Assembly: GCF_015852565.1 (NCBI RefSeq)
Contig: NC_136191.1
Span: 11,912,578 to 11,976,577 of the forward strand
Reading direction: 5' to 3'
Source of the DNA: Branchiostoma floridae
Lineage: Eukaryota
Length of the DNA: 64,000 nt
Shown here one piece after another: positions 3,201-59,457 of the stretch; the stretch's first letter is position 1; each line of letters starts with the position of its first letter. The notes below the pieces were generated by a model. That model worked only from the letters and a program-made list of their open reading frames with translations, ran no database searches and had not been told where the DNA came from. Both the position numbers and the translations under genes were made by a program.

Positions 3201-5598
3201 TAGATACATGTACAGCACTTTCTATCTGTGTAACCATGCATGTATTTTTTTCCAATGTGTAATAAAGAAAATATGTCTATGAGACTTAGGACAAATATTA
3301 AAATCCAGAGAACATGTAGCCAAGTATAGATGTGCAGGATGAATTATAATTGTAACATTGTGCAGGCTTGAGCCACCGGAAGTGGAAGTAGACCCCTTGA
3401 TGACGCGCGGCACCTCGGTGCATGCTGGGGAGACTCTGCACCTAAAGGCGGGAATCAGCGGCAGACCTGCTCCGGAGGTCACGTGGTCCATCCCACAGGA
3501 GGTACAGATGATTTTATTACAGATTTTATTACAAGACGTTCGTTCATCGTCAGAAGAATAGATAAAGACGTTGGTACAAACTTTCAGAAGCCTCTTTCTA
3601 TTCCCATCCTCCTACGCACGGTCCTCCAACGGCACTAGGTAACTGCCAATAGGCACTTATATTTAATTAACTTGTGCCGTCGGGGGACCGAGCGTTGGAG
3701 GATGTCTATTCCTTACGTCAGGTGTTCATAAGGTCACGTGTTTTTAGCAAATGGTATCCGAACATGAAGAGGGAAATAATGACGGCTAATACGAGAAGTT
3801 TATGCGTAAGGTCACAGTTAGGTATAGAATAACCATCTGTCCGTCTTTCAGGAGCGCGAGGGTCGCATCGCTGTGGACACGACGACAAAAGACACGCAGC
3901 TGTTGGTGATGAACTGCGACAGGACTGACGCTGGCAGGTCTGTGTTCTACTACATGTTCATATTAGGTGGTAAACTCATCAGTGGACATCAATATAGTGC
4001 AATAAGAAAAAACGTTCCTAATAAGTATTCTGCTAGCACTGTAATTTTAAGTATCAGATTTCGTTGCTGTTTGTGAAGCTTTGTTAGCGGTTACTGAACT
4101 TTGTTAGCCTTAACTGAAGAAAAGATTTCACAGATCATCATACCAAACGACAATAACTGATCATTTAAGGTTTTGCAAAATGATCCGTGTTTCTGTGGCT
4201 GACGGCTAAGGATGTTGGCAAGAACTGATATAGACATTAATTCTTGTTTCAGATACGTGCTTACCCTTAAGAACAGCGTTGGTGCCAAGACAGTGACGTT
4301 CAGTGTCAAGGTGCTGGACAGTCCTTCTGCTCCCGTCAACCTTCGAGTCAAGGACGCCAACAAAAATCAGGCTGTTCTCAACTGGGATCCTCCAGAGAAG
4401 GTGCCGTCTTGTCTTCACATTAACATAACAGACTTATAAGTACGTTGGGTGGTTTGCCACTGTGAACGTCTGTTGACTTATACTTTTGATATAAGACGTA
4501 TTACTTATTTCGGTTGCTCATTTATGTAAATGTATATGTTAAAGGATGGCGGTAGCCTGGTCACACACTACATTGTTGAGAAGAGAGAACAGTCACGACG
4601 CACCTGGGGTCCCGTGGATAGGGAGGTGCAGAGGAACTCCTACCGGGTCAACATGGTCGAGGGCAACCACTACTACTTTCGGGTGACGGCCGTGAATGAA
4701 TATGGAGAGGGCGTCCCGGCGGAAACCTCGGCACCGACCTTGGCGGCCGACCCTGTTGAGGTGCCGGATCCACCAAGATTCCTGGAGGTACTTTGTCCAT
4801 AACTTTTGATATCCGTTTTCACAAAATGGTACCCCAGATTGTAAACTGGAGTGTCCAATTACTTTCAGCTCGTCCCGAGTCCAATAGCTTTAGTTCTACT
4901 GCAGTTTCAAAAGGAACCGCTAAGGTATCCAAAATGTGTCCCGTTTTCAAGCCGTCACATATGAAACATTATACATGTAGCGCCATCTTTATAACATATC
5001 GTGTTAACAGACTAAAATTCCACAAAAGAGCCGGGAACAAAAATATGACTTTCTAACCCTTGAAGCAAAAACCACGGTAGATACAACACTATTTCTCGAA
5101 AGCAATGTTCATACATGGGATGTTTCAGGTGACCCAGGTGACGGAAACAAGCATAGGTCTGTCATGGGAGAAACCTGACTGGGACGGAGGCGCCAGGGTG
5201 GAGACGTATGTCATTGGTAAGTGTGGAACTATTTTTATTTCGTGATGTCAGAATTAGTAATGGTTAAAGATTTCCTCATAACGACCACTTTTAACAGTGA
5301 AAGCGTTTTGTAGTTGATTTCTGTTGTCCTGCCTCGTCAGATTTAATTTAGTAACATTGTTCGTCTATCATCTATCGTTCTTGCAGAGGGATTATGGGAA
5401 GGCAGCAACTCCTGGACGTTTATGAAGAATACGTGTCAGACTCACGTGACCCTGATGGGACTGGACGAGGGGATGACGTACAGCATCCGGGTCCGTGCGC
5501 AGAACGGGGCGGGAATCGGGCATCCGGCGGAGGTGGAGGAGGATATCGTCTGCAGACACCAGGGGAGCCTGCCAATGGTGGACCTGGGAATGCTGTAG
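147..5598 (+). CDS. 3' portion of a titin/twitchin-like Ig-FN3 repeat protein gene. 13 coding exons lie in the window and the 5' end is upstream of it. Domain order is Ig-FN3-FN3-FN3-Ig-FN3-FN3.
   Basis: Translated exons carry FN3 hallmarks (W..PP.DGGS..GY..E, Y.FRV.A.N..G.G) and I-set Ig hallmarks (DxGxY, C...). All junctions are GT/AG and phase-consistent. The last exon reads ...GHPAEVEEDIVCRHQGSLPMVDLGML and stops at TAG 5596-5598. Confidence 0.7.
669..831 (+). CDS. titin-like exon B (Ig, end)
   Basis: ATTVEKNLGPTCELYIASSERAHNGKYVITAQNELGKASETLELVVTDRPQPPEG; donor |GTGAGT; phase 1. Confidence 0.65.
933..1102 (+). CDS. titin-like exon C (FN3 N-half)
   Basis: ...PMNPLDVEVTEITPETATVTWRPPEDDGGSEVTSYVVEKYDFK; donor AAG|GTCAGT. 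Confidence 0.6.
1271..1471 (+). CDS. titin-like exon D (FN3 C-half)
   Basis: EKEWTEVNRNVRKTPCTVTRLVGGRVYKFGVRAQNMYGVSDRRATSQMEAKYNFEPPEAPDMPRPMQ; CAG|GTAACA. Confidence 0.7.
1792..2009 (+). CDS. titin-like exon E (FN3)
   Basis: ISKEEIVLRWNAPPADGGSPVLGYVLEKKTGTSVRWDRVNTDPIATEIYTVPTVEGGEYDFRVAAVNAAGVGK; donor |GTGAGT. Confidence 0.7.
2040..2165. repeat. ~125-bp hairpin or inverted repeat in a titin-like intron.
   Basis: gatttctaccggggctccttgcactc ... gagtgcaaggagtcccagtagaaatcg. Confidence 0.5.
2453..2580 (+). CDS. titin-like exon F (FN3 N-part)
   Basis: FSVSSGRIVARNIGKPGPPPSVTVVDTTRSSATVRWTQPEDKG; an in-frame alternative acceptor lies at 2459; donor AAG|GTACAT. Confidence 0.55.
2972..3182 (+). 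CDS. titin-like exon G (FN3 C-part)
   Basis: GAAIQGYVLEVKDTTTGWRKCHTCDVIKGCNMTVTGLDPGQEYLFRVSAVNEHGQGEETETTESVEAKD; donor |GTACGT. Confidence 0.7.
3366..3501 (+). CDS. titin-like exon H (Ig N-part)
   Basis: LEPPEVEVDPLMTRGTSVHAGETLHLKAGISGRPAPEVTWSIPQE; GAG|GTACAG. Confidence 0.7.
3852..3937 (+). CDS. titin-like exon I (Ig middle)
   Basis: EREGRIAVDTTTKDTQLLVMNCDRTDAG(R); donor CAG|GTCTGT. Confidence 0.6.
4253..4400 (+). CDS. titin-like exon J (Ig end and FN3 start)
   Basis: YVLTLKNSVGAKTVTFSVKVLDSPSAPVNLRVKDANKNQAVLNWDPPEK; AAG|GTGCCG. Confidence 0.65.
4545..4787 (+). CDS. titin-like exon K (FN3)
   Basis: DGGSLVTHYIVEKREQSRRTWGPVDREVQRNSYRVNMVEGNHYYFRVTAVNEYGEGVPAETSAPTLAADPVEVPDPPRFLE; GAG|GTACTT. 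Confidence 0.7.
5129..5216 (+). CDS. titin-like exon L (FN3 start)
   Basis: VTQVTETSIGLSWEKPDWDGGARVETYVIG; donor |GTAAGT. Confidence 0.7.
5387..5598 (+). CDS. titin-like terminal exon M (FN3 end and stop)
   Basis: EGLWEGSNSWTFMKNTCQTHVTLMGLDEGMTYSIRVRAQNGAGIGHPAEVEEDIVCRHQGSLPMVDLGML*; acceptor ttgcag|. Confidence 0.6.
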
Positions 5599-8049
5599 AA
5601 TCGTACACTTGCCAAGCTGATTCATTTGTACCACAGTGATAAGCAAGATCACAGTCCCAAGTGCGCATGTGTAGCCGTGATGCATTGTGGTTTAAGGTCA
5701 ATGTTTAAGGCCCCTGGTAATTTTTATCAATGCTTGGGGTCATGGGCCTTACACCTGTGAACATGCGCACTTCGTACTGTGAATTGACTTATCAAAATTA
5801 ACAGTTGAGCCAAAAAGAGAGTTAGGCGCCTCACCACTTTTTGAGGACTTGGATTATGTTCATAGAGTCAAGTTGCCACTATACTATTGAGCTCAATTTG
5901 CCTGTAAATATTGCTATGTGCAAATGTACAAAAATGTAAGACTACCTTATCTTAGCTATACAATGTAAAAGAAACTGAAAGGAGTGGACCATTTGTAAGA
6001 TCAAGACAAAAGATATTCTTGCAGTGAAGTGTGACCTGGCAATGGCAGTACTTGTAGACACATACACAGCCTTGTATACTGGATATGACGGCGGCACGGC
6101 GGTTGTGTGCTCTATACTAAATTAAACCATGACATACCTGTGTGGAGACATAACAACCTTGCAAGACAGCCATGTGCTTATATATGACAAAATAGCCGAG
6201 GTGCTATTGCCGGACGTGACAAAACTGGTAAATTTTACCAGATTATATCGAGGCTTTGTAATCTGACCACGACAATGAATTATTTGCATGCTTGTATGGT
6301 ACATATTGTCAAAATAGGATTTGTGATTAGTATATATAGGTGTTGTTTTGAAATTGATTAGTCAGTAGTTACCAAGCCAATTAGGTGTTCACTTGCATGG
6401 TCCATTTATTCTTCATACCGCAAGTACAATAGATATTTGCATGACGGATGTCTCATGAAAACCCATGTAATTGTGCACTATTGTCTTATTGGTTTGCAAT
6501 ACATGAAATAAACAATAGTCATTCAAAATCTTTTAAAACAATTGTCTGGTATCATGAAATAAAAAAGTGCCAACAGTTGCGTTTGCTTTGTTTTTTTTTT
6601 TTTGCAAACGTGACACATTTCAGTTTTTAGACTTTACTTTACGCAAGTGTCAGGTGTTATTTTCTATTGGTTACAAGCTACGTTATCATTAATTCATTTA
6701 GAAATTGGTCACTTTACGAACTAATTGGAAAATTGAATTACATATGTATTGATAAAATTTGATACATTATCGATAAGTATTGCCCACAAGGTTAGATGAA
6801 GTCGCCATAGTTTAAATTAATAAATTAATAAAGTGGATACCATTTTCGGAAAAAGAAGGCAGCTCCAGACCTATAGAATCACGGTCTTCACTATGGCTGT
6901 GTCTCAAGTGATGTACCTTTCATTCTCTCAAATGATTGGTCACGATTGTCCAATACAATAAATACCATCATCTGTAGTTGATTGAAATTGGATGCCCCGA
7001 TCCCCGGCCCATTCAAGCAGATGCGAAAGTAGGCAAATCACTTTAACGTTTTCTGACCGGGCGACGTTTCTGCATTTCTCCATTGTTAGAAAAGCCATCC
7101 GGTCAGAAAACTGTGCAATTTTCTAACCACCCAAACATCTGCTTGGAGTTTAGCGTTGTCTGACCTAGGAAGTAAATGCCACAGGGGTCACGAGGGGTCA
7201 TGAGGCTTCTATGACAACACGCACGTACCATCCATGATTTGATTGATTTACTGGTCTTCTAGGTACAGAATCTGTGGAAATAAGAGTCTATTTCTCACTT
7301 GCTATAATACCTATCTTTGTTGATGAAGTTAGACTGACAGAATATGGCCTAATCTTGTGGGAAAAGCTCAGTTTAAGCATGTTGTTGTTGTCGGAAGATC
7401 CATGGTTACAACCGGTTTGACAGGTAAGCCCCCCTCCCCGCATACTTTCACTTGTATTGCTCTGTAAAAATACAATATCATTTGATCGGCTTTACAATAT
7501 GAAAGAAATTTACAGAAATGAGATAGTTATATCTGCATATCCTTTTCATCTAGTTACAATTGATCGTGTTAAATCTGGAAACAAACTACAATTTTCACAA
7601 ATGATAAATGACACCCTATGGCTGCTTTTGGTGTAGTGATATTAAACTACACAACTGCTTTACAAAGTCAGACATAACTGAGAAAAAACGTGGATGACAC
7701 TAAGATCACTTTGGGGTAAATATATGTCATTGAGAAATATAAACAATGGAATGAGACCATATGTAACCTAATTATGACAGGTTAGGGTAAACATACATTT
7801 GTATTTAGGTCATGAAAAGGCCATGATTATCAAAGCAAAATATTGCTGCCATCAATTTTATATTAAGTTACAATGCACAGATTTGAGATGAGAGCAGTAT
7901 ATGATCTAATAACAAATCCAAAAATTGTTATAGAAAAGCTCAATAAATGAACAAATAAATGATAAACATTTGCTACTGCAGCAGTATATTCTCTTCAATC
8001 ATATTGTTTACGATGATGTTTTCTGTGCAGTGTGTGAATCAGAGTGAAG

Positions 8050-19879: not shown

Positions 19880-22393
19880 GTAAGCAGTTATTAAGAATAC
19901 TTTATTGACAGGAGAAAAATGTTCATGGTAGAAGTAACACCTTTTTAATTTGTGGGGAGGGGGGGCGTCCACAACAGAACGCTGATATAGATTTAACCGT
20001 TATATATATAATTTGAGAGATGACTGCCGTTTGACCTAATGTACATATTATTGTTTTACAGTCAGGAAAATATTTTCCATGCAGCTGGACTTTTGGGAAA
20101 GCACTTAACACGACTTTCCTATATAGGCTACAAAAGTCTTCAGCAAATTGAACTTGGTAGCCTCAAAAACGGAAGAAGGAAGAATGATGCAGGCTCCTGG
20201 CTGTAGTAAATTATTATCGTTAACGTTACATAAAATGTGTAACGTGACATGTTTCCATACCCACATTTTGTTGTCAAATGTTTAAGCCACTGCAGTAAGA
20301 TCGCTAGCAACCCAGAGCCCAGACCATGGTGTACCAGACACAGAGGATAATGACATCATCAATCCAAACTTCATCAACCGCAATCCTCGCAACCTGGAGC
20401 GGATGGGCCTGGGTAGGAAGGAGCGGGGATGGAAGACAACCTGGCCCAAAAAGGAGTGCTGGCATAGGTACGTGATTGTGACATGTCTCTGTAATTATAC
20501 AGTATACTACTAGTAGGCTAGCTATCAAGCCTTATCACACAATATCAGACCATGAATACAGTCTAAACTAATCAAGAAGACTATTCAAGAGACCAAAATA
20601 TCGTAATGGCAATTTTAATTTTTTTTAGCCTATGTCACAGTAACCATTCTGCAGCTGAGTATAGGTTGGCTGACAATGGAAGAAACAAAAAGAACACAGC
20701 TGCAGGCCAGTAGGCCATTAAAAACATTATCTTTTCATTCGGAAACATAATGACAACCAAACAGTGCTCACATTAGCCATATGATCAATATGTAGAGGTG
20801 CCCACTTTGCACAGGTTTGACTGATACTTGTCTTGTAAAGTTGATGATCTCAACCCTAACTCTGCAGAAAAGAGGTTTCGAAGGAATAACGTGTTTGTTT
20901 TTTCTGTCTCCAAGGTGTCATTTTGTGAAGAGTAAACGTTATGTGACTGGGTATGTTCAGCACCACAACGGACACATTGTTGCATCCGCCTCGTCCTTTG
21001 AGTGGCCCATAAGGAAACACCTGTACAGCACCAGGTAAGTTTCCTATAGCTTATCATAGGAATAATTTTGCTTTCGTGTTCCACCAAGTTGTAGAGTGAG
21101 AGGGGCACACACCCTCAGAGTTAATGACCATCTCTTCCAGGAAATGCCTTTATTTATTTATTGATCTTATAGGGTGGTCCCTTCAGTCAGCAGACTGATT
21201 TCCAAGGGAGCCCTGTGACAATCAACATATACAATAACCATACAAGCAGAAAAAGTTGTGTATGGGAATGAAGGATATCCCTTCAAACTCTCCAGCTCTA
21301 GTAAATCATAGGGTAAAAACGTATTTTTGGCATAGCAACATGGTGAACGGTGGACGGTGAATCTGTGGCAAAAGATGCAAATTACTTTCCGCATGGAAGA
21401 TTACCCGAAAGTCAGACTTGGGCCCAATATTAATTTTTACCCAAAACACATCACTTCTTTCTCTTGTCAGTCATGTTACTATCTAGACTATAATGTCATT
21501 TTGCAGCAGATTATAACTTAAGCCTGGATCCTCAAAACCCTTTCTACACCTTTATTGCCATGCACTTTGAACCCTGCCATTGAAGAATTGGAATGTGCAC
21601 CCTTAAGTAAATCAGGGTAGCCTCAATCTGTAGCTTCTTCTTTGACTTTTCTAGTAAATTTAGTATCCCAGCCTTTGTCTACTTGAATATCAAAGGTGTT
21701 CCAGTGCTGAAATCTGAATTAATCTTGTTTCAGTGACGTTTCTGCAGCGGAGAACATCGGCCATGTCCTAGCGCAGCGGTGCCTGGAGGCAGGGATCCAC
21801 TTCATGGAGTTTGACGATGTTCCTCACAAGTTAGAGTCTGAAACGGTGAGGGGGCCATCTTGTACAGTTTTGTAGCACTGTATGCTGCATAGATCAGTCT
21901 AATGACAATTCAATGATTTAAAACACTTAGGTTGTTAATTCTCAGACTTAATAGTCTGATCAGAATATCTGTCTCTTAATACATGTGATTCAATGAACAG
22001 ATTTCTGTGAAATTTTCCTCATGTCAGAATGTCTTAAGTGGGTTTATTCACTTTCATACTCCTTAAGAGCATAATGTATTGCACTGCACTATTCGCTTTT
22101 GATGTCCTTTCCTAAAAGTTATTCCTTTATTCCATGGTGTATTTATTCTCCCGTGATTCTTCCAAGCTTCATATGTCAATACTAACTCAGGTGTTCAAAG
22201 TTAATTGTTAATACCCCCGGTATTAATACACTGTTTTTTTACCCCACAGGTACAGAGATTCCAACAGGCCATGGTAGATGGAGGAATGAATCTGTCAGAG
22301 CCAAGAAGAATTTACGAACACAAACATCTGTTCAAGGAAACAGACTATGATGCAGAAGATTATAACACGAAGGAAGCAGAGATTGAACAATAG
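19723..22393 (+). CDS. MRPL18: Mitochondrial ribosomal protein L18 (uL18m) orthologue, 5 coding exons.
   Basis: The translated exons align from memory to human MRPL18: NRNPRNLE...RKERGW; HHNGHIVASASSFEWPIRKHLYSTR matches [44 protein letters not shown] matches [27 protein letters not shown]-like EPRRIYE. The N-terminus is a basic presequence. Junctions are phase-consistent. Confidence 0.85.
20296..20467 (+). CDS. MRPL18: MRPL18 exon 2
   Basis: ...DTEDNDIINPNFINRNPRNLERMGLGRKERGWKTTWPKKECWH; donor |GTACGT. Confidence 0.7.
20915..21034 (+). CDS. MRPL18: MRPL18 exon 3
   Basis: RCHFVKSKRYVTGYVQHHNGHIVASASSFEWPIRKHLYST; CAG|GTAAGT. Confidence 0.8.
21734..21845 (+). CDS. MRPL18: MRPL18 exon 4
   Basis: [46 protein letters not shown]. 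Confidence 0.8.
22250..22393 (+). CDS. MRPL18: MRPL18 exon 5 (stop)
   Basis: VQRFQQAMVDGGMNLSEPRRIYEHKHLFKETDYDAEDYNTKEAEIEQ*. Confidence 0.8.
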   Translation, partial: VQRFQQAMVDGGMNLSEPRRIYEHKHLFKETDYDAEDYNTKEAEIEQ

Positions 22394-22959
22394 AGCAATC
22401 TATAGATCTGTTACTAACGACAATAGATGTAGACAACAAGATTTTTGATAAACATGAAAGATGCCTTTAGAAATCAGCAACAAATTTAAAAACTGGATGG
22501 TTTAAAACTTTAAATGATACATGACACGTATGACTATGAAAATCTAAGAGTGTTCAAGAATGTATGTGTATTGCCAAGAATAAAACTGGATGTAATACAA
22601 CCAGTATATCAAGTTGGTTTCCTATTGCCTTAAACATTTATCTATTAAAACTAAGGTATCTCACTTCTCAGTTATTCAAGAAAATAATTTAGTCTATTTA
22701 TAGACTCTAAAGCTTAAAAATGTTTGGTTTCTGAAAAACTATCACTTTCACAGCTTTTAGGCTTCTTGCAACTGGTAGCTAGGGAAGATGGGGGCATGTC
22801 TATGTACATATATGTCTTGCTCAAACCTTTTAACAGCCTTTTCCACTGTTGGTGTTAAGACTTGCTTGATCCTTGAGTACAAGGGGGAATTAAGATTGAT
22901 GAGTTCAGGCATTTATGTCCCTTTTGCTTCGTGCATCACCGTTCTTTCAAGGATACAAC

Positions 22960-26463: not shown

Positions 26464-26621
26464 ATGACGGACAGGAAGCAGGGTCGGTTTTCCGGAGGGA
26501 ACTCGGAGGAGTCCATCTTCCGCATCCCTCCGTTCTACTACATGCACGTACTGGACCAGAACCTCAACGTCACCAGGACAGAGGTTGGGCCCAAGACTTA
26601 CATCCGACAGGACAATGAGAA
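26464..26621 (+). CDS. MVP: MVP exon 1
   Basis: [52 protein letters not shown]; donor AA|GTATGT. Confidence 0.85.
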
Positions 26622-29600
26622 GTATGTACTGATACTTAAAAACCTCTAAACATTCACAGTACAATTAACATTAACCCTAAAGGCATCGAGTAAGCATGCA
26701 TCAGCCCACACCCACTTTTGACATTCATTTGCGTCATCAATACGTTGAGAACTACATTTTGTACACAAGCTGTATTAATTCTTATCTACAAAAGCGTAAA
26801 GCAAAATGACAATTCTTTGTATCCAGATCAATGATAAAAAACATAACATTTTGAAGTAAAAGGTCCATGTTTCTAAAGAATTGCATGAATTTGTATACTG
26901 AATAATTTATTGTGTAATAACATTACATTGTTCTGCAGTCAATACCATTTTGGAAATTGGGTTTGATGAATAACATTTTTGAACTGGGAAACCTTGAGAA
27001 AACCTTGTTAATAAAGGTTTTTGTTCCATGATGCCCCCATGATGTAATGTTGGCATGGCAGGGTACAATATCATGTTCTTTTTTGGGAATTGTGCCAAAT
27101 TGTAAGGGGTAACTCATTAGTGTGTAGCCTAGGAATATGATACTAAATGTATTATGAAAAAAAGGGTGATTTTGTATTAGAATACCTTATGCACAATACC
27201 ACCCATTTTTTTCATAATAAAAACCTGACGTTGTGCATGTATATGCTTTTTGCTCAAATTTAGTCATTTAACATTATACATTATCAATAAGAAGATAACA
27301 AAATGTTGTAAATATCTTACCAACTTACATTATTGTGAGCTGAAATATGTTTGTTTATTTTGCTGTCTCCAGAGTTGTGCTTCCTCCAGAGAAGATGATC
27401 ACGGTGCCGCCGCGCCACTACTGCGTGGTGGAGAACCCCGTGGTGCGTGGCGAGGACGGCGCGCCCGTGTACGACACCAGCGGACAGGTGAAGCTGGTCC
27501 ACGCAGACCTGGAGATCCGCCTGGCGCAGGACCCCTTCCCACTCTTCCCTGGAGAAACTCTCAAACAGGTGGGTTTATACTATATGGCACAGGACCCCTT
27601 CCCACTCTTCCCTGGAGAAACACTCAAACAGGTGGGTTTATACTATATGGCTCAGGACCCCTTCCCACTCTTCCCTGGAGAAACACTCAAACAGGTGGGT
27701 TTATACTATATGGCACAGGACCCCTTTCCACTCTTCCCTGGAGAAACACTCAAACAGGTGGGTTTATACTATATGGCACAGGACCCCTTCCCACTCTTCC
27801 CTGGAGAAACACTCAAACAGGTGGGTTTATACTATATGGCACAGGACCCCTTCCCTCTCTTCCCTGGAGAAACACTCAAACAGGTGGGTTTATACTATAT
27901 GGCACAGGACCCCTTCCCTCTCTTCCCTGGAGAAACTATCAAACAGGTGGGTTTATACTATAAGGCACAGGACCCCTTCCCACTCTTCCCTGGAGAAACA
28001 CTCAAACAGGTGGGTTTATACTATATGGCACAGGACCCCTTCCCTCTCTTCCCTGGAGAAACACTCAAACAGGTGGGTTTATACTATATGGCTCAGGACC
28101 CCTTCCCTCTCTTCCCTGGAGAAACACTCAAACAGGTGGGTTTATACTATATGGCACAGGACCCCTTCCCTCTCTTCCCTGGAGAAACACTCAAACAGGT
28201 GGGTTTATACTATATGGCACAGGACCCCTTCCCACTCTTCCCTGGAGAAACACTCAAACAGGTGGGTTTATACTATATGGCACAGGACCCCTTCCCACTC
28301 TTCCCTGGAGAAACACTCAAACAGGTGGGTTTATACTATATGGCACAGGACCCCTTCCCACTCTTCCCTGGAGAAACACTCAAACAGATGGGTTTATACT
28401 ATAAGGCACAGGACCCCTTCCCACTCTTCCCTGGGGAAACACTCAAACAGGTGGGTTTAGAGGAAGGAATCATGAAGGAAAGCACTGTGTCTGTACATGT
28501 GGTGTACGACCACAAACTACTATATATACTTTTTCACCCTTCTCTTAGTCCTAAGCATAGCAATGCATTAAGCCATAGAATGCCCTTTACATTTTAACGC
28601 ACATTGGTTCTGACCAGAATTGTTCAACCAGAAGTTCTAAAGGAAGTCAGGACCAACTATTTTCTACCTGAGTCAACATATATAATCAAAGGTATCATGA
28701 GGGACCATAAATTTGATACCCCTTTAATTTGACACTTATGAGTACCTAGTGCCACTTAAAATCCAGCAGGGCAATGCTAAAATCCGTTAATTGCATAATT
28801 TCCGAGATGAGCAAAGTACCAAACTTAAAAAGGTACATTTTTGTATGTATGTGAGGTCCTGAGGGTTATATATTAAATGTAAGCCTGTATTGGATAAGTG
28901 TCAAAGGGCAAAGGACAAAATCAATTGTGATGTGATGTAGAATCACCCTTTGTCCCCTTCCCAAAGGTTGTTGTGCAAAAGATTAGAGATGGCCCGGTGA
29001 ACTTCAGGTTAAAGGTTACCAGACAAAGATGATAAAATTGAATAACAATACTTGTGATGCATTGACTTACAGAAATATAATGCAATGAAACTTTGGACCA
29101 TTGGAATAATCTCCAATCAGCTAGACATTTACAGAGGTCTAATGTATATTCTATAAGAAGTTTGTGTCTAAGATCTAGTTTATGCATTATCAATCATTTT
29201 TTGTTAGACTTGTTAGAAAAGTAACAACACTTTTTGACAGTTGTGAATACAGATAATGCTAGTTCACCTTTATTCATTGGGTAAGCTATATCCATTGCTT
29301 TAGAAAACAGGGTAGCTTGGGCACATCAAGTCGACGGTTGGTAGTTTAAACTGCAATATCCTCAAAATGTCGCAATTTGAAACCAATGTCCATCGACATG
29401 ATATCCACAAATACCCTGTTTTTAAAAGCAGGATATAGGTAACTCAACGGATAAAGGTGAACTAGCGTTACATGTTGTATACCTTCTCCCTTCTGTCTAA
29501 CCCAGTAATCGAGTACAGATTCTGTTCCAAAAGGCTGCCAGGGCAGGGAAAACATTGACAGATACATTTTGTTCATGATTGTTCCCCCTTCCAGAATGTG

Positions 29601-32600
29601 ACAGCCCTGAAAGTTGTCTCTGCGGACACTGCCCTGAGGCTGCGGGCAGTGCTGGACCTGGAAGACCAGACTGGACAGAAGAGAGTGGCAGGAGATGAGT
29701 GGCTCTTTGAAGGACCAGGTTAGATACTTCTTATGCAATAGACAGTGGCATCAAAACTGGAATCATTGAAAATGCTATCTTAAGAGCATTCAAAAATTCC
29801 AGAAGATTTACTAGATATTTGGTGGGTATACTTTCAAACTGTGTTCCAAATTCCTGCATGTAATCCAAAGAGAAGACCTTTTTTTAATATCCCTTAAAGC
29901 GCGGTCACATTGAGTTGGTGCAATTGTCCTACGATCGCTAACTTGGGGCATGTTTTAGGACAACCATGCATGTGTCCTACAATGTTCAGCTGTCTTGTTG
30001 CATAAAACGCTCTCTTGGATCCTTGTGGGTGTTTAACTTTGTTACTGCCTGTTTAAAAATCCTATTATCAAAATCGTACGACGATCGAACGACCTACATG
30101 TGACCGCACCCTTACCATTGATTTCTCCTCATGTCACCACGTCTTATGATGGATCTCTTCCTTTCCAATAGGCACGTACATTCCAAGGAAGGAGGTTGTA
30201 GTAGACGAGACAGTCCGTGCGACCGTGATTCTGCCTAACCAGGCCATCAAGCTGAGGGCTCGCAAGGAGACAGAAGACCGTGATGGCAACCACAGGGTCA
30301 CAGGTGACATTGCAAACCCTAACTCAGATTGTTTTAACATCTCAAGACATGTTGAAATCATCTCAAGATTTTGCACAAAATTTCAAGATGTTTAGAAATA
30401 AATTCTATCATTAACGAAGCACAAAGACATCTGCAAGGATCATGATAACATGGACGGCTGTGAGGAAATATAAGATTCATATTACCGGTAAGCATATGGC
30501 TTAACAAAGTCTTTGATGCAAAAGGTTGAAGCATTAGTTCAAGAGACACAATATAAGTTTAAGATGACTGATGTTTTTACTGAAGCCTGTTGATGATAGT
30601 GCATACAACAGTTTTTGGTTTTGTCCCCACAGGTGAGGAGTGGGTGGTGAAGAAGGTGGGAGCTTATCTGCCTGGTGCATATGAGGAGGTGGTTGACGTT
30701 GTGAACGCCTACGTCCTGACAGAAAAGGTATCTTGGAAACAGATTTTCTTCAAACTGTATTTTTACTATGTGCAAACCAATCTCATTTACCTGCCCGCAT
30801 TATTCCAAATCTGGAGTTTGATGTCAAATAAAAACAGAATTGTGGAAAAAATGTGACATATGAGTTAATTGGAATCAGTCATTTCAATCTAGTAGCTGCA
30901 GATTTTTTGCCAGAGGATTTGTTGCTGGTTTACTTCTTTCACTTTTCACTGCTGACCATGAGTTTTGTTAAATGTGTTTTACAGAAAGCCCTGCACATGC
31001 GAGCACTGCGGACCTTCAAGGACTTCAAGAACCAGACCAGGAAGAGTGGTGAGGAGTGGCTCATCACCATGCAGGACACCGAGACTCACATCCCTGACGT
31101 TTATGAGGAGGTAGGGGAGTCGGACTGTCATTTAGCCATTGGAGCTGTAGTTATAATGCATGTTTGACAAATAACCTTACAGGCCATACAAATATCATCA
31201 CAACAGTGGGCTATGACCAATACAACTGCAAAAAGGCTACCTTTCGTTGGCAAGCAAAAGGTGCAAACAACCTTAAGTTAGACAGTATTTAGGACATGAA
31301 ATGTAAAATATAGAAAATATGAAAATCGAGCTGATGAGTCCAGATTTCAGTATCCATGTTTATTTCACAGGTTGTTGGAGTGATTAACATCACAACCCTG
31401 AGCAACCGCGAATACGCCGTGATCGTGGACCCTGTAGGGGAGGATGGGAAACCCCAGTTGGGCCAGCGGAAGCTTGTTAAGGTCAGTCCCTATATTGCAC
31501 ACATCCGACAGCAAAAGAATTCCTCTTCATGTTACGAAGGTTTGACTAGCTGTGAGCTAGTTTGCATGTTTGCGTCTGAGAAAAAGATAAAAGCATTTCG
31601 CTTATCTACATCATCAAACAATGTCAAGCATTAAACGTAACTATCTTTCCAATCAATATTAACCTTTTGGTGACAAATTGTGTTGAAGTGTTTTTCTTCA
31701 TTAGGATTAAGAAAACCCCAAGGAAAAGCTATATGTCATCAACCAAGATGTTTCTGTATGTTTCAGGGGGAGAAGTCGTTCTTCCTGCAGCCAGGAGAGA
31801 CCCTTGAGGACGGGATCCAGCCCATGTACATCTTGGAAGAGGACGAGGGTCTCATCCTTAAGGCTAATGAAGCCTTTAAGGACATGGATGCTGTAAGAAC
31901 AAATTTGTTCTATATAAATAATTTCAAAAAGTGATTTCAAGTTTTATCAGGTGCAATATCAGGATTTCACTTCAGCGACAGGTGTTTTTCTGTGAGGTAT
32001 TTCATAGCAAGTCTGTTTTACTCAGAATGACGATGAAGAAGCTGAAGAAGTGTCGTCCGAACCTGGCGCCAAGAAAACACTGGTGACTACAGCAGCTGAA
32101 TCTGTAGCTTGGCTTGAGTTTGCGGTGTAATGGCATGGAAAATAAAACTCACAGTATTTGACTGGATTGTCAATGGCAAATCATGTACAACTCTGTTTTG
32201 ATTGCTTCCAGTGTCCTTTTGGGTTGTCAAATGGTGCTATGATTTAATCCTGTTTGCCTGGTGTTCTTCCATTTTTTTTTTTACAGTCAAACTTTTATGC
32301 TTCATTGATTTGCCCATGTTCTGTCATGTGTTTGGTGTCAAGTGATGATAAGAATTGTACAATCTCTGATTCTGTTAGTCTATCAAAAACTGACAAGAAT
32401 ATCGTAATGCCTGTAGATTGCTGTGGACTTATATTATCTGTTTAAGGTTTGTTAGTGAAAAATTGCTATGAATCAACTAGGTCACCGTATAATCACTAAC
32501 GTTGCACATTTTACCCAAGCCATTTTGATAGTGCAATGGCATGCTAATCACTTCTTGTGATTCCTGCAGCCTCCAATGTCTTAATCTGCTCTTTCCATAC

Positions 32601-35600
32601 TACTTTTGACATGCTGTTATCCATAAAATAGAAATCTATCATTTTGACCAGAGTATGAAATTTTCTTTGCAGCAGAAGGACGGAGTAGAGCGCAAACCTG
32701 GTGACCGCTGGATGATTCGCGGCCCCAAGGAGTACGTTCCGCCCGTGGAGGTTACCGTGGTGATGAAGAGGAAGGCCATTCCATTGGACGAGAATGAGGG
32801 AATCTACATCCGGAATATCAAAACTGGCAAGGTGAACAATTTGGTTTGCATTTGAGTAGTCACTTTAAAGTTTTGACTGTGTCCATTTCACTGATGTGAC
32901 CTCAACTGTTGTTGTAACTTTATATTTTTAATGCCATGATTTGAATACAATTTCAATTTTTCTTTTAATGCCATTGTGAATGTGGGCATTTTCAGATTTT
33001 CTAGATACTATGTTATACTATGTGCTATTTGAGGAAAACCATCTCCCCTTGTAGTAACAAGCTGAATATAAAATATATGCTGGAAAGAAGCTGCCATTCA
33101 GAGGTACTGCGGGGCAACTGCATTGATTGTTTTGCCTGCCTGAAGCATAACGTATGACCTTTGACCTTGCAGGTCCGTGCGGTGTGCGGACAGACCTACA
33201 TGTTGGACCAGGACGAGGAGAGTTGGGCTAAACAGCTGCCACCAGCAGTGGAGTCTCTCCTCACACAGAACTTGGTGGGTACATACTAAAATTCTGCAAA
33301 CTGAAATGGTGATATTTGAAAAGAATATTGCAGAAGAAACTAGATGACAATATCAGGAACTCAGGTGTGACATGTTCTCAAATACACCTTTCTCAGGCAG
33401 CGGCCATGATAGATTGAAGACGAGGTCAATGAGGCAAATAGACAAAAATTATTTCTAAAATCAGGTCCCATTTAGTTTTTCTTCAGACCACACAAATTTT
33501 CACAATGTAAGATAAAATGATAAATATTATAACTAGTGTTATGCAGCAAAATACAGTCAAACCTGCCCAAGACGACCACCCGGGGGACCGGACAAAAACG
33601 GTCGATTTGAACAGGTGGTCGCTGAGAAGAGTATCGACTCAAAACATGCCCTATGCAAAGTATAACGGTTTCCGTTGTGTTTAATGGCAAATAGCAAGCA
33701 CACTGCACGCACGCAAAGAAGCGAGGTATTTAATGGCAAATACAACACGCACACTGTAAATTGTAAATTTAACCCCAGCTTTTATACGATACAGTATAAT
33801 ATTTGTACACTAACGTTTTAGACAGTAAGGGAACTTTGATGCTGTCATGCGTCGCTGTGTTCTTGATCGCCGTATCTGAAATAACTACGGTGCACCTTTC
33901 GAATTCTATGCCCGGCACGTCCCGATAGGGCACTTACCCAAGGGTGAATATACAGTACAGTTGGACAAAAGCACTCACACAGATCTTTCTTTAAAAGGTA
34001 TGAGCTACACAGATCTTTCTTAGACATTTCCTCCCATATTACAGTAGACTGCCCCATTGACCCACCCATTGACCGCCGCAATCTTTATTCTAAACATAAC
34101 ATCGTAAAGGCAGTCAAATCCGACGCAAACTGGTCGATTTTGGCACAAAATCGCGCTAGTTATCATAAAAAATCGATGAAAACCTCAATTTTGAAAATGA
34201 TGCGGCCGTTAAGGGGCCCAATTTGGGCCGGTCGCGGTCGCGTTGGCCAGGTGGTCGTTGAGAAAAGGTCGCTTAATGCTTACGTCAATAGGAAAAAAAA
34301 TCGGGAACGAGAAAAAGCGGTCGAAATGGCCAGGTGGTCGCTGAGAAGAGGTGGTCGCTCGGGCAGGTTTGACTGTATGTAGCAATTTAGACTCGCGTAC
34401 TGATCCTATAGTCCCTTAAGAGATGCAAAATAAAAACATAATAATGCAAATATTTGACGGACATGAAGCCATTCTCTCATTGGTCACTTTCCTAATAGGC
34501 AGGCTATCATTGGTTGAATTGTTAATTATGATGGACAGTCTTTTGTTTACCTCATTGAACTCGTTTTAGATCTATCATGGCCGCCGCATGAGAAAGGTCT
34601 ATGGCTTGTGCAGAGAAAGCCAGTTTTACATGTACTTGGTATGACAAGTTGTTCAACATGCCAATGGTGTATGACTGAACAGTGCTCATTCTTAGGAACA
34701 GCTAAAGTACAAGATATAGATGGGGAAACAAAGGAATAAATCAGGTCACTTAAGCTTAATCAAGATAATGAAAGTTGAAATTTTCTTTCCAAAACAAGTT
34801 AAGTACACTTATCAAATTTCTAAGTGATGCTTGTACATTGTACTTAAATTGGGAAAGACAACTTATACTGTCATTGATCATATGACTTACCAACACAGGT
34901 GAGCTAATTCATTCTAATACTAGTCAAATCTATTCCTTTGTTACCCCACTATATAGGTGCTAGACTCAGGCAGGCCTGCATTTGGGTCTATGATGAACAT
35001 ATGCCCTGATCTAGGGGAAATTCAACAGGAAGTTCAAGTTCAAAAACAGCAGAGGTCTCAGCCTCGCTTCCGACCTGCTGAAGTTGGCATGGCTGTGCAG
35101 GCCTACTCTAATGTTGGGATTGTAAGTTTTATGGTAGAGTGTAACATGCATGGGTGCAACTTAGAAATCACTGTGGCCTTTTTTAACTGCTCTCAATATC
35201 ATCTCTGTTTAAGTGCTTACAAAATGACGAGATGTATGTGTGCAAAAAAGCACATGCTTTTTTTCTTCTTGCTACACACATGCTGCCTAAGGTTTAATCT
35301 TGCAATAGCTGGAGTATAGCTGTAGATAAAGCTGCACAGCACTAGTTTTTGCTGTACTACCGGTATGATGAATGTGGGGAGTACAGCAGACATCTATCTG
35401 CTTAGGCAATCTCCCATTGAGGGAATTGCAGAAACATTTAGTTGCAAGGTTTTGCTGTTCTTGTAGAGCACAAACCTCTGTGATTTATGTTAGACTCTGA
35501 ACTGTTCTGAATTTCACCCCTTTTCCTATTCAGGATCCACTTGCGGATCGAAGCGACCGTGGGCCCCGCCCTCGTCCGGATCAGCCACGTGACAAAACCA

Positions 35601-47578: not shown

Positions 47579-59457
<11,879 letters not shown>

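Follow-up and report, generated by a model that had tools for sequence, protein, structure and literature searches.

Minisatellites that lie across an exon/intron boundary, and that reiterate the splice donor with every copy, have been described in several genes, all of them studied in mammalian cells. In intron 7 of human F7, a 37-bp variable number tandem repeat (VNTR) is present in five to nine copies, each with the donor UGG/gugggu (slashes mark exon/intron boundaries throughout); only the most upstream donor is used, although the others function when those ahead of them carry mutations (Borensztajn et al., 2006; PMC1557585). According to the same paper, the minisatellite in intron 2 of IFI6 (6-16) provides 25 pseudo-sites and its first three donors are used (Turri et al., 1995), as are the first three donors in intron 13 of CBS (31 bp, 15-20 repeats), while only the authentic donor is used in LMNB2 (100 bp, 10-15 copies) and in intron 4 of PDGFA (81 bp, 16-18 copies). 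Here we describe a 63-bp minisatellite that spans the end of exon 2 and the start of intron 2 in the gene for major vault protein (MVP) of the amphioxus Branchiostoma floridae, in a stretch of 64,000 nucleotides (contig NC_136191.1 of assembly GCF_015852565.1, positions 11,912,578 to 11,976,577 of the forward strand), which is referred to below as the window and in whose coordinates all positions are given unless another locus is named. We propose that the array is probably a young, B. floridae-specific intronic VNTR derived from a boundary-spanning duplication, with the first donor serving nearly all transcripts and the remaining donors acting as decoys.

The MVP array belongs to this known class of boundary-spanning, donor-reiterating minisatellites by three features of its architecture: the first monomer straddles the boundary, the donor is repeated identically, and the copy number is polymorphic. 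A fourth feature of the class is dominance of the upstream donors, and here the canonical MVP models use the first donor while two NCBI models (X5 and X11) use internal ones. The F7 repeat is likewise polymorphic, its first monomer also lies across an exon/intron boundary and is followed by identical pseudo-donors, and it shares the intronic hexamer /gugggu with MVP. It differs in that the 37-bp unit is not a multiple of three and includes four exonic nucleotides, such that downstream use shifts the frame, and in that its splicing was tested experimentally, whereas the 63-bp MVP unit includes 47 exonic nucleotides, remains in frame in up to 15 copies, and is described from its sequence and from gene models. 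IFI6 resembles MVP as a boundary-spanning minisatellite that reiterates its donor many times, with several donors used constitutively; there, splicing at the first three donors is on record, whereas downstream use in MVP is put forward by automated models. The repeats of CBS, LMNB2, and PDGFA are comparable in that each is a minisatellite in which an exon/intron junction recurs 10-20 times, the units of LMNB2 and PDGFA being the nearest to 63 bp, but they occur in other genes and in mammals, and none is reported in MVP or in a non-vertebrate chordate. Together the F7, LMNB2, PDGFA, IFI6, and CBS precedents support a mostly silent array in MVP. Literature searches on amphioxus MVP turned up nothing on the array or the locus, in apparent agreement with the original prediction that the arrangement was not known to have been described for this gene, although the architecture itself is that of an already described class (PMC1557585).

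The identity of the host gene is clear. The predicted product of the plus-strand gene at 26464 to 38980 matches the Pfam families Vault_2 (1e-26) and Vault (4e-26) and the rat and human MVP structures (PDB chains) at E = 1e-95 to 1e-99, and its 18 coding exons splice to an 869-residue protein that is identical over all 869 residues to XP_078599456.1, annotated as 'major vault protein-like isoform X9' of a Branchiostoma floridae x B. japonicum hybrid assembly. The original prediction had named MVP as the host, which these matches bear out. The window is colinear with the B. floridae reference chromosome at ~89% identity across introns and intergenic DNA, and the reference MVP protein differs from the product of the window at residue 3. 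Against B. lanceolatum and B. belcheri the identity is 76-79% and is confined to conserved patches. Huang et al. (PMC10013865) give a heterozygosity of 3.2-4.2% and a divergence of the parental species at least 50 My ago and, from these figures and the alignment, the window is a B. floridae haplotype. An origin from B. japonicum was considered and rejected in view of the colinear non-coding match of ~89% to the B. floridae reference, set against a species split of at least 50 My.

Tandem Repeats Finder reports a single array here, with a period of 63, 14.9 copies, 97% matches, 0% indels, and a score of 1764. Within the window it far outranks every other repeat, of which only a degenerate 44-bp array at 49.9-50.4 kb is sizeable. 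The MVP array is 938 bp in length, takes in the final 47 nt of exon 2, and extends into intron 2 (Table 1), much as the original prediction had it, with some 15 copies of the exon-2 tail and its donor. When cut in the MVP frame from 27524 it falls into 15 units, and all 15 keep the exon-2 frame without a stop, also as predicted, each encoding the 15-residue exon tail followed by VGLYYM or a near variant. With intron 2 in phase 0, none of the array donors would shift the frame; the expectation that use of a downstream donor would add multiples of 21 residues is arithmetically right, with 21 more residues per donor and up to 294 in all. Three details have been revised. It had been stated that every copy presents an intact donor, but this is true of 14 of the 15, since copy 14 reads CAG/ATGGGT; the full tally is thus 14 AAACAG/GTGGGT and one AAACAG/ATGGGT, or the authentic donor plus 13 identical copies and one that is dead. 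The unit was thought to include 18 intronic nucleotides, of which nine are indeed native intron, while seven are the filler TACTATA and two (TG) already belong to the next copy. The L/I and M/K variants that had been listed among the units are present, but P/L is absent from the window, where the third amino-acid variant is V/M and where the CCA>CCT substitution leaves the residue unchanged. Copy 3 of the reference B. floridae allele, by contrast, carries Pro>Leu.

Table 1. Features of the MVP exon 1 to exon 3 region and of the reiterated splice donors.
Feature	Position in the window	Strand	Details
MVP coding exon 1	26464..26621	+	ATG at 26464; donor GAA/GTATGT; from tblastn and exact splicing to XP_078599456.1
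MVP exon 2, canonical mRNA form	27373..27568	+	196 nt; last 47 nt form the first part of array copy 1; from exact splicing; Vault_2 spans model residues 61-120
63-bp minisatellite	27522..28459	+	Unit: 47 exon-tail nt, then GTGGGTTTA (9 nt, native intron) and TACTATA (7 nt, filler); from Tandem Repeats Finder, a per-copy listing, and the B. lanceolatum boundary
First, most upstream 5' splice site	27569..27574	+	CAG/GTGGGT; gives the conserved 869-residue protein
First in-frame junction-created ATG	27584..27586	+	Filler TACTATA plus TGG; 12 intact, every 63 nt; start codons of NCBI models X5 and X11
12 internal donors	27632..28330	+	CAG/GTGGGT; last exonic bases 27631, 27694, ... 28324, in steps of 63 nt; each adds 21 residues; from pattern count
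Dead donor, copy 14 (28343-28405)	28388..28393	+	CAG/ATGGGT; the G>A change also gives V>M
Last donor, copy 15	28451..28456	+	The only one followed by native intron, GTGGGTTTAGAGGAAGG; use gives a 1078-nt exon 2 and 294 more residues
Rest of intron 2	28460..29594	+	Unique, with an orthologous stretch in the B. floridae reference; acceptor CCCCCTTCCAG/AAT; holds a 214-bp MITE-like insertion
MVP exon 3 (NVTALKVV...), start of R3	29595..29718	+	Begins AATGTGACAGCC; from exact splicing to XP_078599456.1
Unit-to-unit junction, diagnostic sequence			GTGGGTTTATACTATATGGCA

The origin of the array can be read from a comparison of orthologous loci, which were reached by direct lookup or by way of the upstream uL18m gene as an anchor with 10 kb of flank. 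The exon-2 tail occurs in 14.9 copies in the window. The B. floridae reference (GCA_000003815.2, locus L004, 20793-20974) has 2.9 copies of the same 63-bp unit between orthologous flanks, while the tail is single copy in both assemblies of B. lanceolatum (L001 and L003) and in B. belcheri (L002), where intron 2 is ~740 nt in length. The copy-number difference together with the single copy in the two other species implies a young, lineage-specific VNTR. On these alignments, and as compared with B. lanceolatum and B. belcheri, the array is confined to the B. floridae lineage, it varies in copy number as sampled in two B. floridae alleles, and it is a young VNTR by the same evidence. A population-variable VNTR had been one of the options in the original prediction, and it is supported by the two alleles.

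The boundaries of the duplicated piece are defined by B. lanceolatum, in which the start of intron 2, GTGGG...TAGAGAAGGATCGAGA, matches the sequence past the last copy in the window, GTGGGTTTAGAGGAAGGAATC, and TACTATA is missing both at that boundary and past the last copy. It follows from this match that the native duplicated segment is 56 nt (47 exonic and nine intronic) and that TACTATA is filler at the junction. The filler is common to both B. floridae alleles, which points to a single founding event as far as two alleles can tell. A tandem duplication of the 56-nt piece, consisting of the last 47 nt of exon 2 and the first 9 nt of the intron, added 7 nt of filler at the junction, and replication slippage or unequal exchange then changed the copy number, giving rise to three- and 15-copy alleles at the least. 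This origin is what the aligned DNA demonstrates.

A further possibility raised in the original prediction is that the 15 copies are an artefact of assembly, in which case the true allele, like that of the reference, would have about three copies. Assemblies are prone to error at tandem repeats, and 15 copies are found in one assembly only, but the unit itself is carried by two independent assemblies, there are no indels between units, and the copies differ at eight separate sites, which are arranged non-randomly and do not include the TTA variant of the reference. Moreover, 20-kb PacBio libraries went into the hybrid assemblies of Huang et al. (PMC10013865), and the 938 bp of the array would be far below the length of such reads if the NCBI assembly is one of theirs. 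An expansion artefact is therefore extremely improbable.

The central question is which of the donors is used. All amphioxus MVP models with a full N-terminus use the first donor, and the ...GETLKQ/NVT... junction that it produces recurs in over 100 MVPs of other animals. A search of 5.8 billion protein clusters, with both full read-through and repeat-focused queries, found no protein that joins the MVP N-terminus to VGLYYM units, and the four higher-coverage cluster matches are ordinary MVP fragments without such units. From the precedents and this annotation we infer that the first donor dominates in MVP. The splicing machinery would take the most upstream donor in nearly all transcripts, yielding the conserved 869-residue protein and removing the rest of the array as intron, and the downstream donors would be silent or rarely used decoys, any use of which would add 21 residues per unit at the linker between modules R2 and R3 of the protein.

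Several observations weigh against this proposal. The 14 intact donors all share the 9-nt sequence CAG/GTGGGT, which agrees with the consensus at seven of nine positions and equals the best donors in the gene, and, position -10 aside, the 13 downstream ones are identical to the first from -47 to at least +9. The first is set apart only by its position, by T in place of A at -10, and by the genuine exon sequence that precedes -47. The splicing precedents are all from mammalian cells, and the rules of donor choice in amphioxus may differ. Two NCBI models of the hybrid assembly, X5 (XP_078599451.1, 767 residues) and X11 (XP_078599458.1, 788 residues), use internal donors of the array, and X11 exceeds X5 by 21 residues, or one whole unit read through, which requires that some reads contain the unit-to-unit junction. 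Lastly, five of the six variable sites in the exon-derived 45 nt are synonymous (nominal p = 0.003-0.02), a possible hint that the copies are translated.

These same observations favor an alternative in which the downstream donors are used to an appreciable extent, producing MVP isoforms with 21 x n extra residues at the R2/R3 linker and with lengths set by the VNTR allele, much like IFI6, whose boundary minisatellite is reported to give in-frame isoforms. In addition to being in frame, 13 downstream donors are intact with the CAG/GTGGGT of the first; both X11, with its one unit of read-through, and X5, with its internal donor, can be encoded from the window; the second and third donors are used in IFI6 and CBS (PMC1557585); and the exon-derived part of the copies has its synonymous excess. 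We nevertheless consider appreciable downstream use to be unlikely. No model or database protein combines a normal N-terminus with extra units, and among the precedents of PMC1557585 those with units of at least 37 nt use the first donor only. X5 and X11 both start within the array, as would be expected from read-length-limited or mis-mapped short reads together with reads from pre-mRNA. They splice exactly from the window at 10 and eight alternative positions, respectively, always by way of internal donors 2-13 and an array ATG, and junction reads with an exon 2 overhang of less than 47 nt fit any copy. The -10 position adds a bias to this ambiguity. It is T in copy 1 of the window but A in its other copies and in the reference allele, and reads from animals with a reference-type exon therefore fit the downstream copies better than copy 1, favoring the mapping of other animals' reads to those copies. 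X5 and X11 may reflect either real minor use or read mis-mapping. Their start inside the array would be a short-read chaining artefact, and pre-mRNA reads would suffice for the read-through in X11.

Two properties of the array that might be taken as signs of coding do not hold up as such. The open frame is one, and it was rejected as evidence on two grounds: the array is free of stops in two of its three forward frames, and only six new codons per unit have to lack one; by itself the open frame of the array is weak evidence for coding. The other is the synonymous excess. Copies 2-15 vary at eight sites, five of them synonymous and all five in the exon-derived 45 nt, and over the whole unit the share of five of eight is less pronounced (p = 0.02-0.09). 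The nonsynonymous sites are L>I among the 45 exon-derived nt, and M>K and V>M among the 18 nt past the donor, with V>M being the change that kills the donor. Three of the five synonymous variants are A>T changes on exactly the three CAC of the unit (CAC>CTC; 27526, 27541, 27559, and the equivalent sites in other copies), for which the chance among 17 A's is ~0.0015. This pattern suggests a context-specific mutation or repair bias, which fits better than selection on the protein and argues for a mutational hotspot rather than for downstream donor use. There is no sign of strict constraint in the dead donor or in the Pro>Leu change of the reference copy. Given the CAC>CTC hotspot, the small numbers, the reference Pro>Leu, and the one dead donor, the synonymous excess was also rejected as evidence of translation. 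A bolder form of the same idea, in which VNTR allele length sets the menu of in-frame MVP isoforms, three- and 15-copy animals have different, heritable, and expandable insertions in the vault wall, and the synonymous bias reflects selection on the peptide, is in our view highly doubtful.

A separate explanation of X5 and X11 is that the ATGs of the array start genuine N-terminally truncated MVP from an internal start in intron 1 or in the array, without R1 and most of R2. XP_078599451.1 and XP_078599458.1 do begin at a junction-created ATG, and each of the 12 such ATGs in the array has G at +4, but the context also has T at -3, no promoter evidence for an internal start was found, and a model start within a repeat is what the limits of short-read chaining typically produce. 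The truncation would furthermore delete domains that form the rim between the two halves of the vault (PMC2752026). A true internal start is consequently very improbable.

If downstream donors were nonetheless used, the structural consequences can be anticipated from the position of the exon 2/3 junction. This corresponds to residue 107/108 of rat and human MVP and, in the Pfam Vault_2 model of 60 positions, to positions 58-59, immediately ahead of the following Vault repeat. On this mapping the insertion site is the end of R2, in the R2/R3 linker, rather than between the first two vault repeats as the original prediction had placed it. In the crystal structure of MVP R1-R7 the modules are closely packed with short linkers and there is a characteristic bend between R2 and R3, and the beta2-beta3 loop of R3 starts around E130 (PMC2752026). 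Such packing makes it probable that long insertions disturb the shell, which counts against appreciable downstream use, and up to 294 extra residues in each of 78 subunits would probably do so.

If use of the first donor is exclusive, the locus would be a neutral intronic VNTR whose main value is as a natural experiment, in which 14 identical donors spaced every 63 nt, together with three- and 15-copy alleles, in a non-vertebrate chordate provide a test beyond mammals of the 5'-to-3' 'first site wins' rule of F7. It could also show how the donor rule scales with exon length, from 196 to 1078 nt. Every donor choice is in frame, and hence nonsense-mediated decay would not hide minor products. 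For annotation, the array already lies behind questionable RefSeq isoforms that start at the duplication-junction ATG. If, on the other hand, downstream donors are used, the array would represent a rare heritable, length-variable insertion in the vault shell.

Other sources of MVP diversity were seen in the course of this analysis. A NAGNAG tandem acceptor, TTTGCAG/CAG/AAG, is located at the start of exon 9 (32670-32675) and accounts for the 868- and 869-residue forms of B. floridae MVP, which are one Gln apart (DMDAKDG versus DMDAQKDG). An alternative acidic micro-exon at 32026-32082 is the orthologue of an 18-residue exon in the 888-residue MVP of B. lanceolatum (CAH1232375.1), with the donor changed from CAG/GTAAAA in B. 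lanceolatum to AAG/AAAACA in the window, where the next GT lies 9 nt on and keeps the frame. The longest annotated MVP products are 927 residues in B. belcheri, 947 in B. lanceolatum, and 943 in B. floridae, or ~58-77 residues over the canonical length, and since B. lanceolatum and B. belcheri lack the array their longer products must come from other alternative exons. One ENA contig that clustered with amphioxus MVP fragments, ERZ25070917 (2221-2799), has MVP exons 1-3 fused in one open reading frame with introns 1 and 2 absent; it comes from a different animal (65% identity) and is uninformative as an amphioxus comparison.

The MITE-like element in intron 2 of MVP (29256-29469) has terminal inverted repeats of ~16 bp, GCTAGTTCACCTTTAT ... 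ATAAAGGTGAACTAGC, and relatives at 13697-13917 in the window and at 3891-4118 and 7511-7736 of the B. floridae reference locus L004. The orthologous site in the reference (L004, ~21690) is empty, and the element is thus an insertion polymorphism between haplotypes. Just upstream of MVP and on the same strand is the gene for the mitochondrial ribosomal protein uL18m (MRPL18; ~19400-22400), and the uL18m-MVP neighborhood is kept in B. floridae, B. lanceolatum, and B. belcheri. A second minisatellite lies outside MVP at 49895-50439; it is degenerate and GT-rich, with a unit of ~44 bp in ~12 copies and 75% matches.

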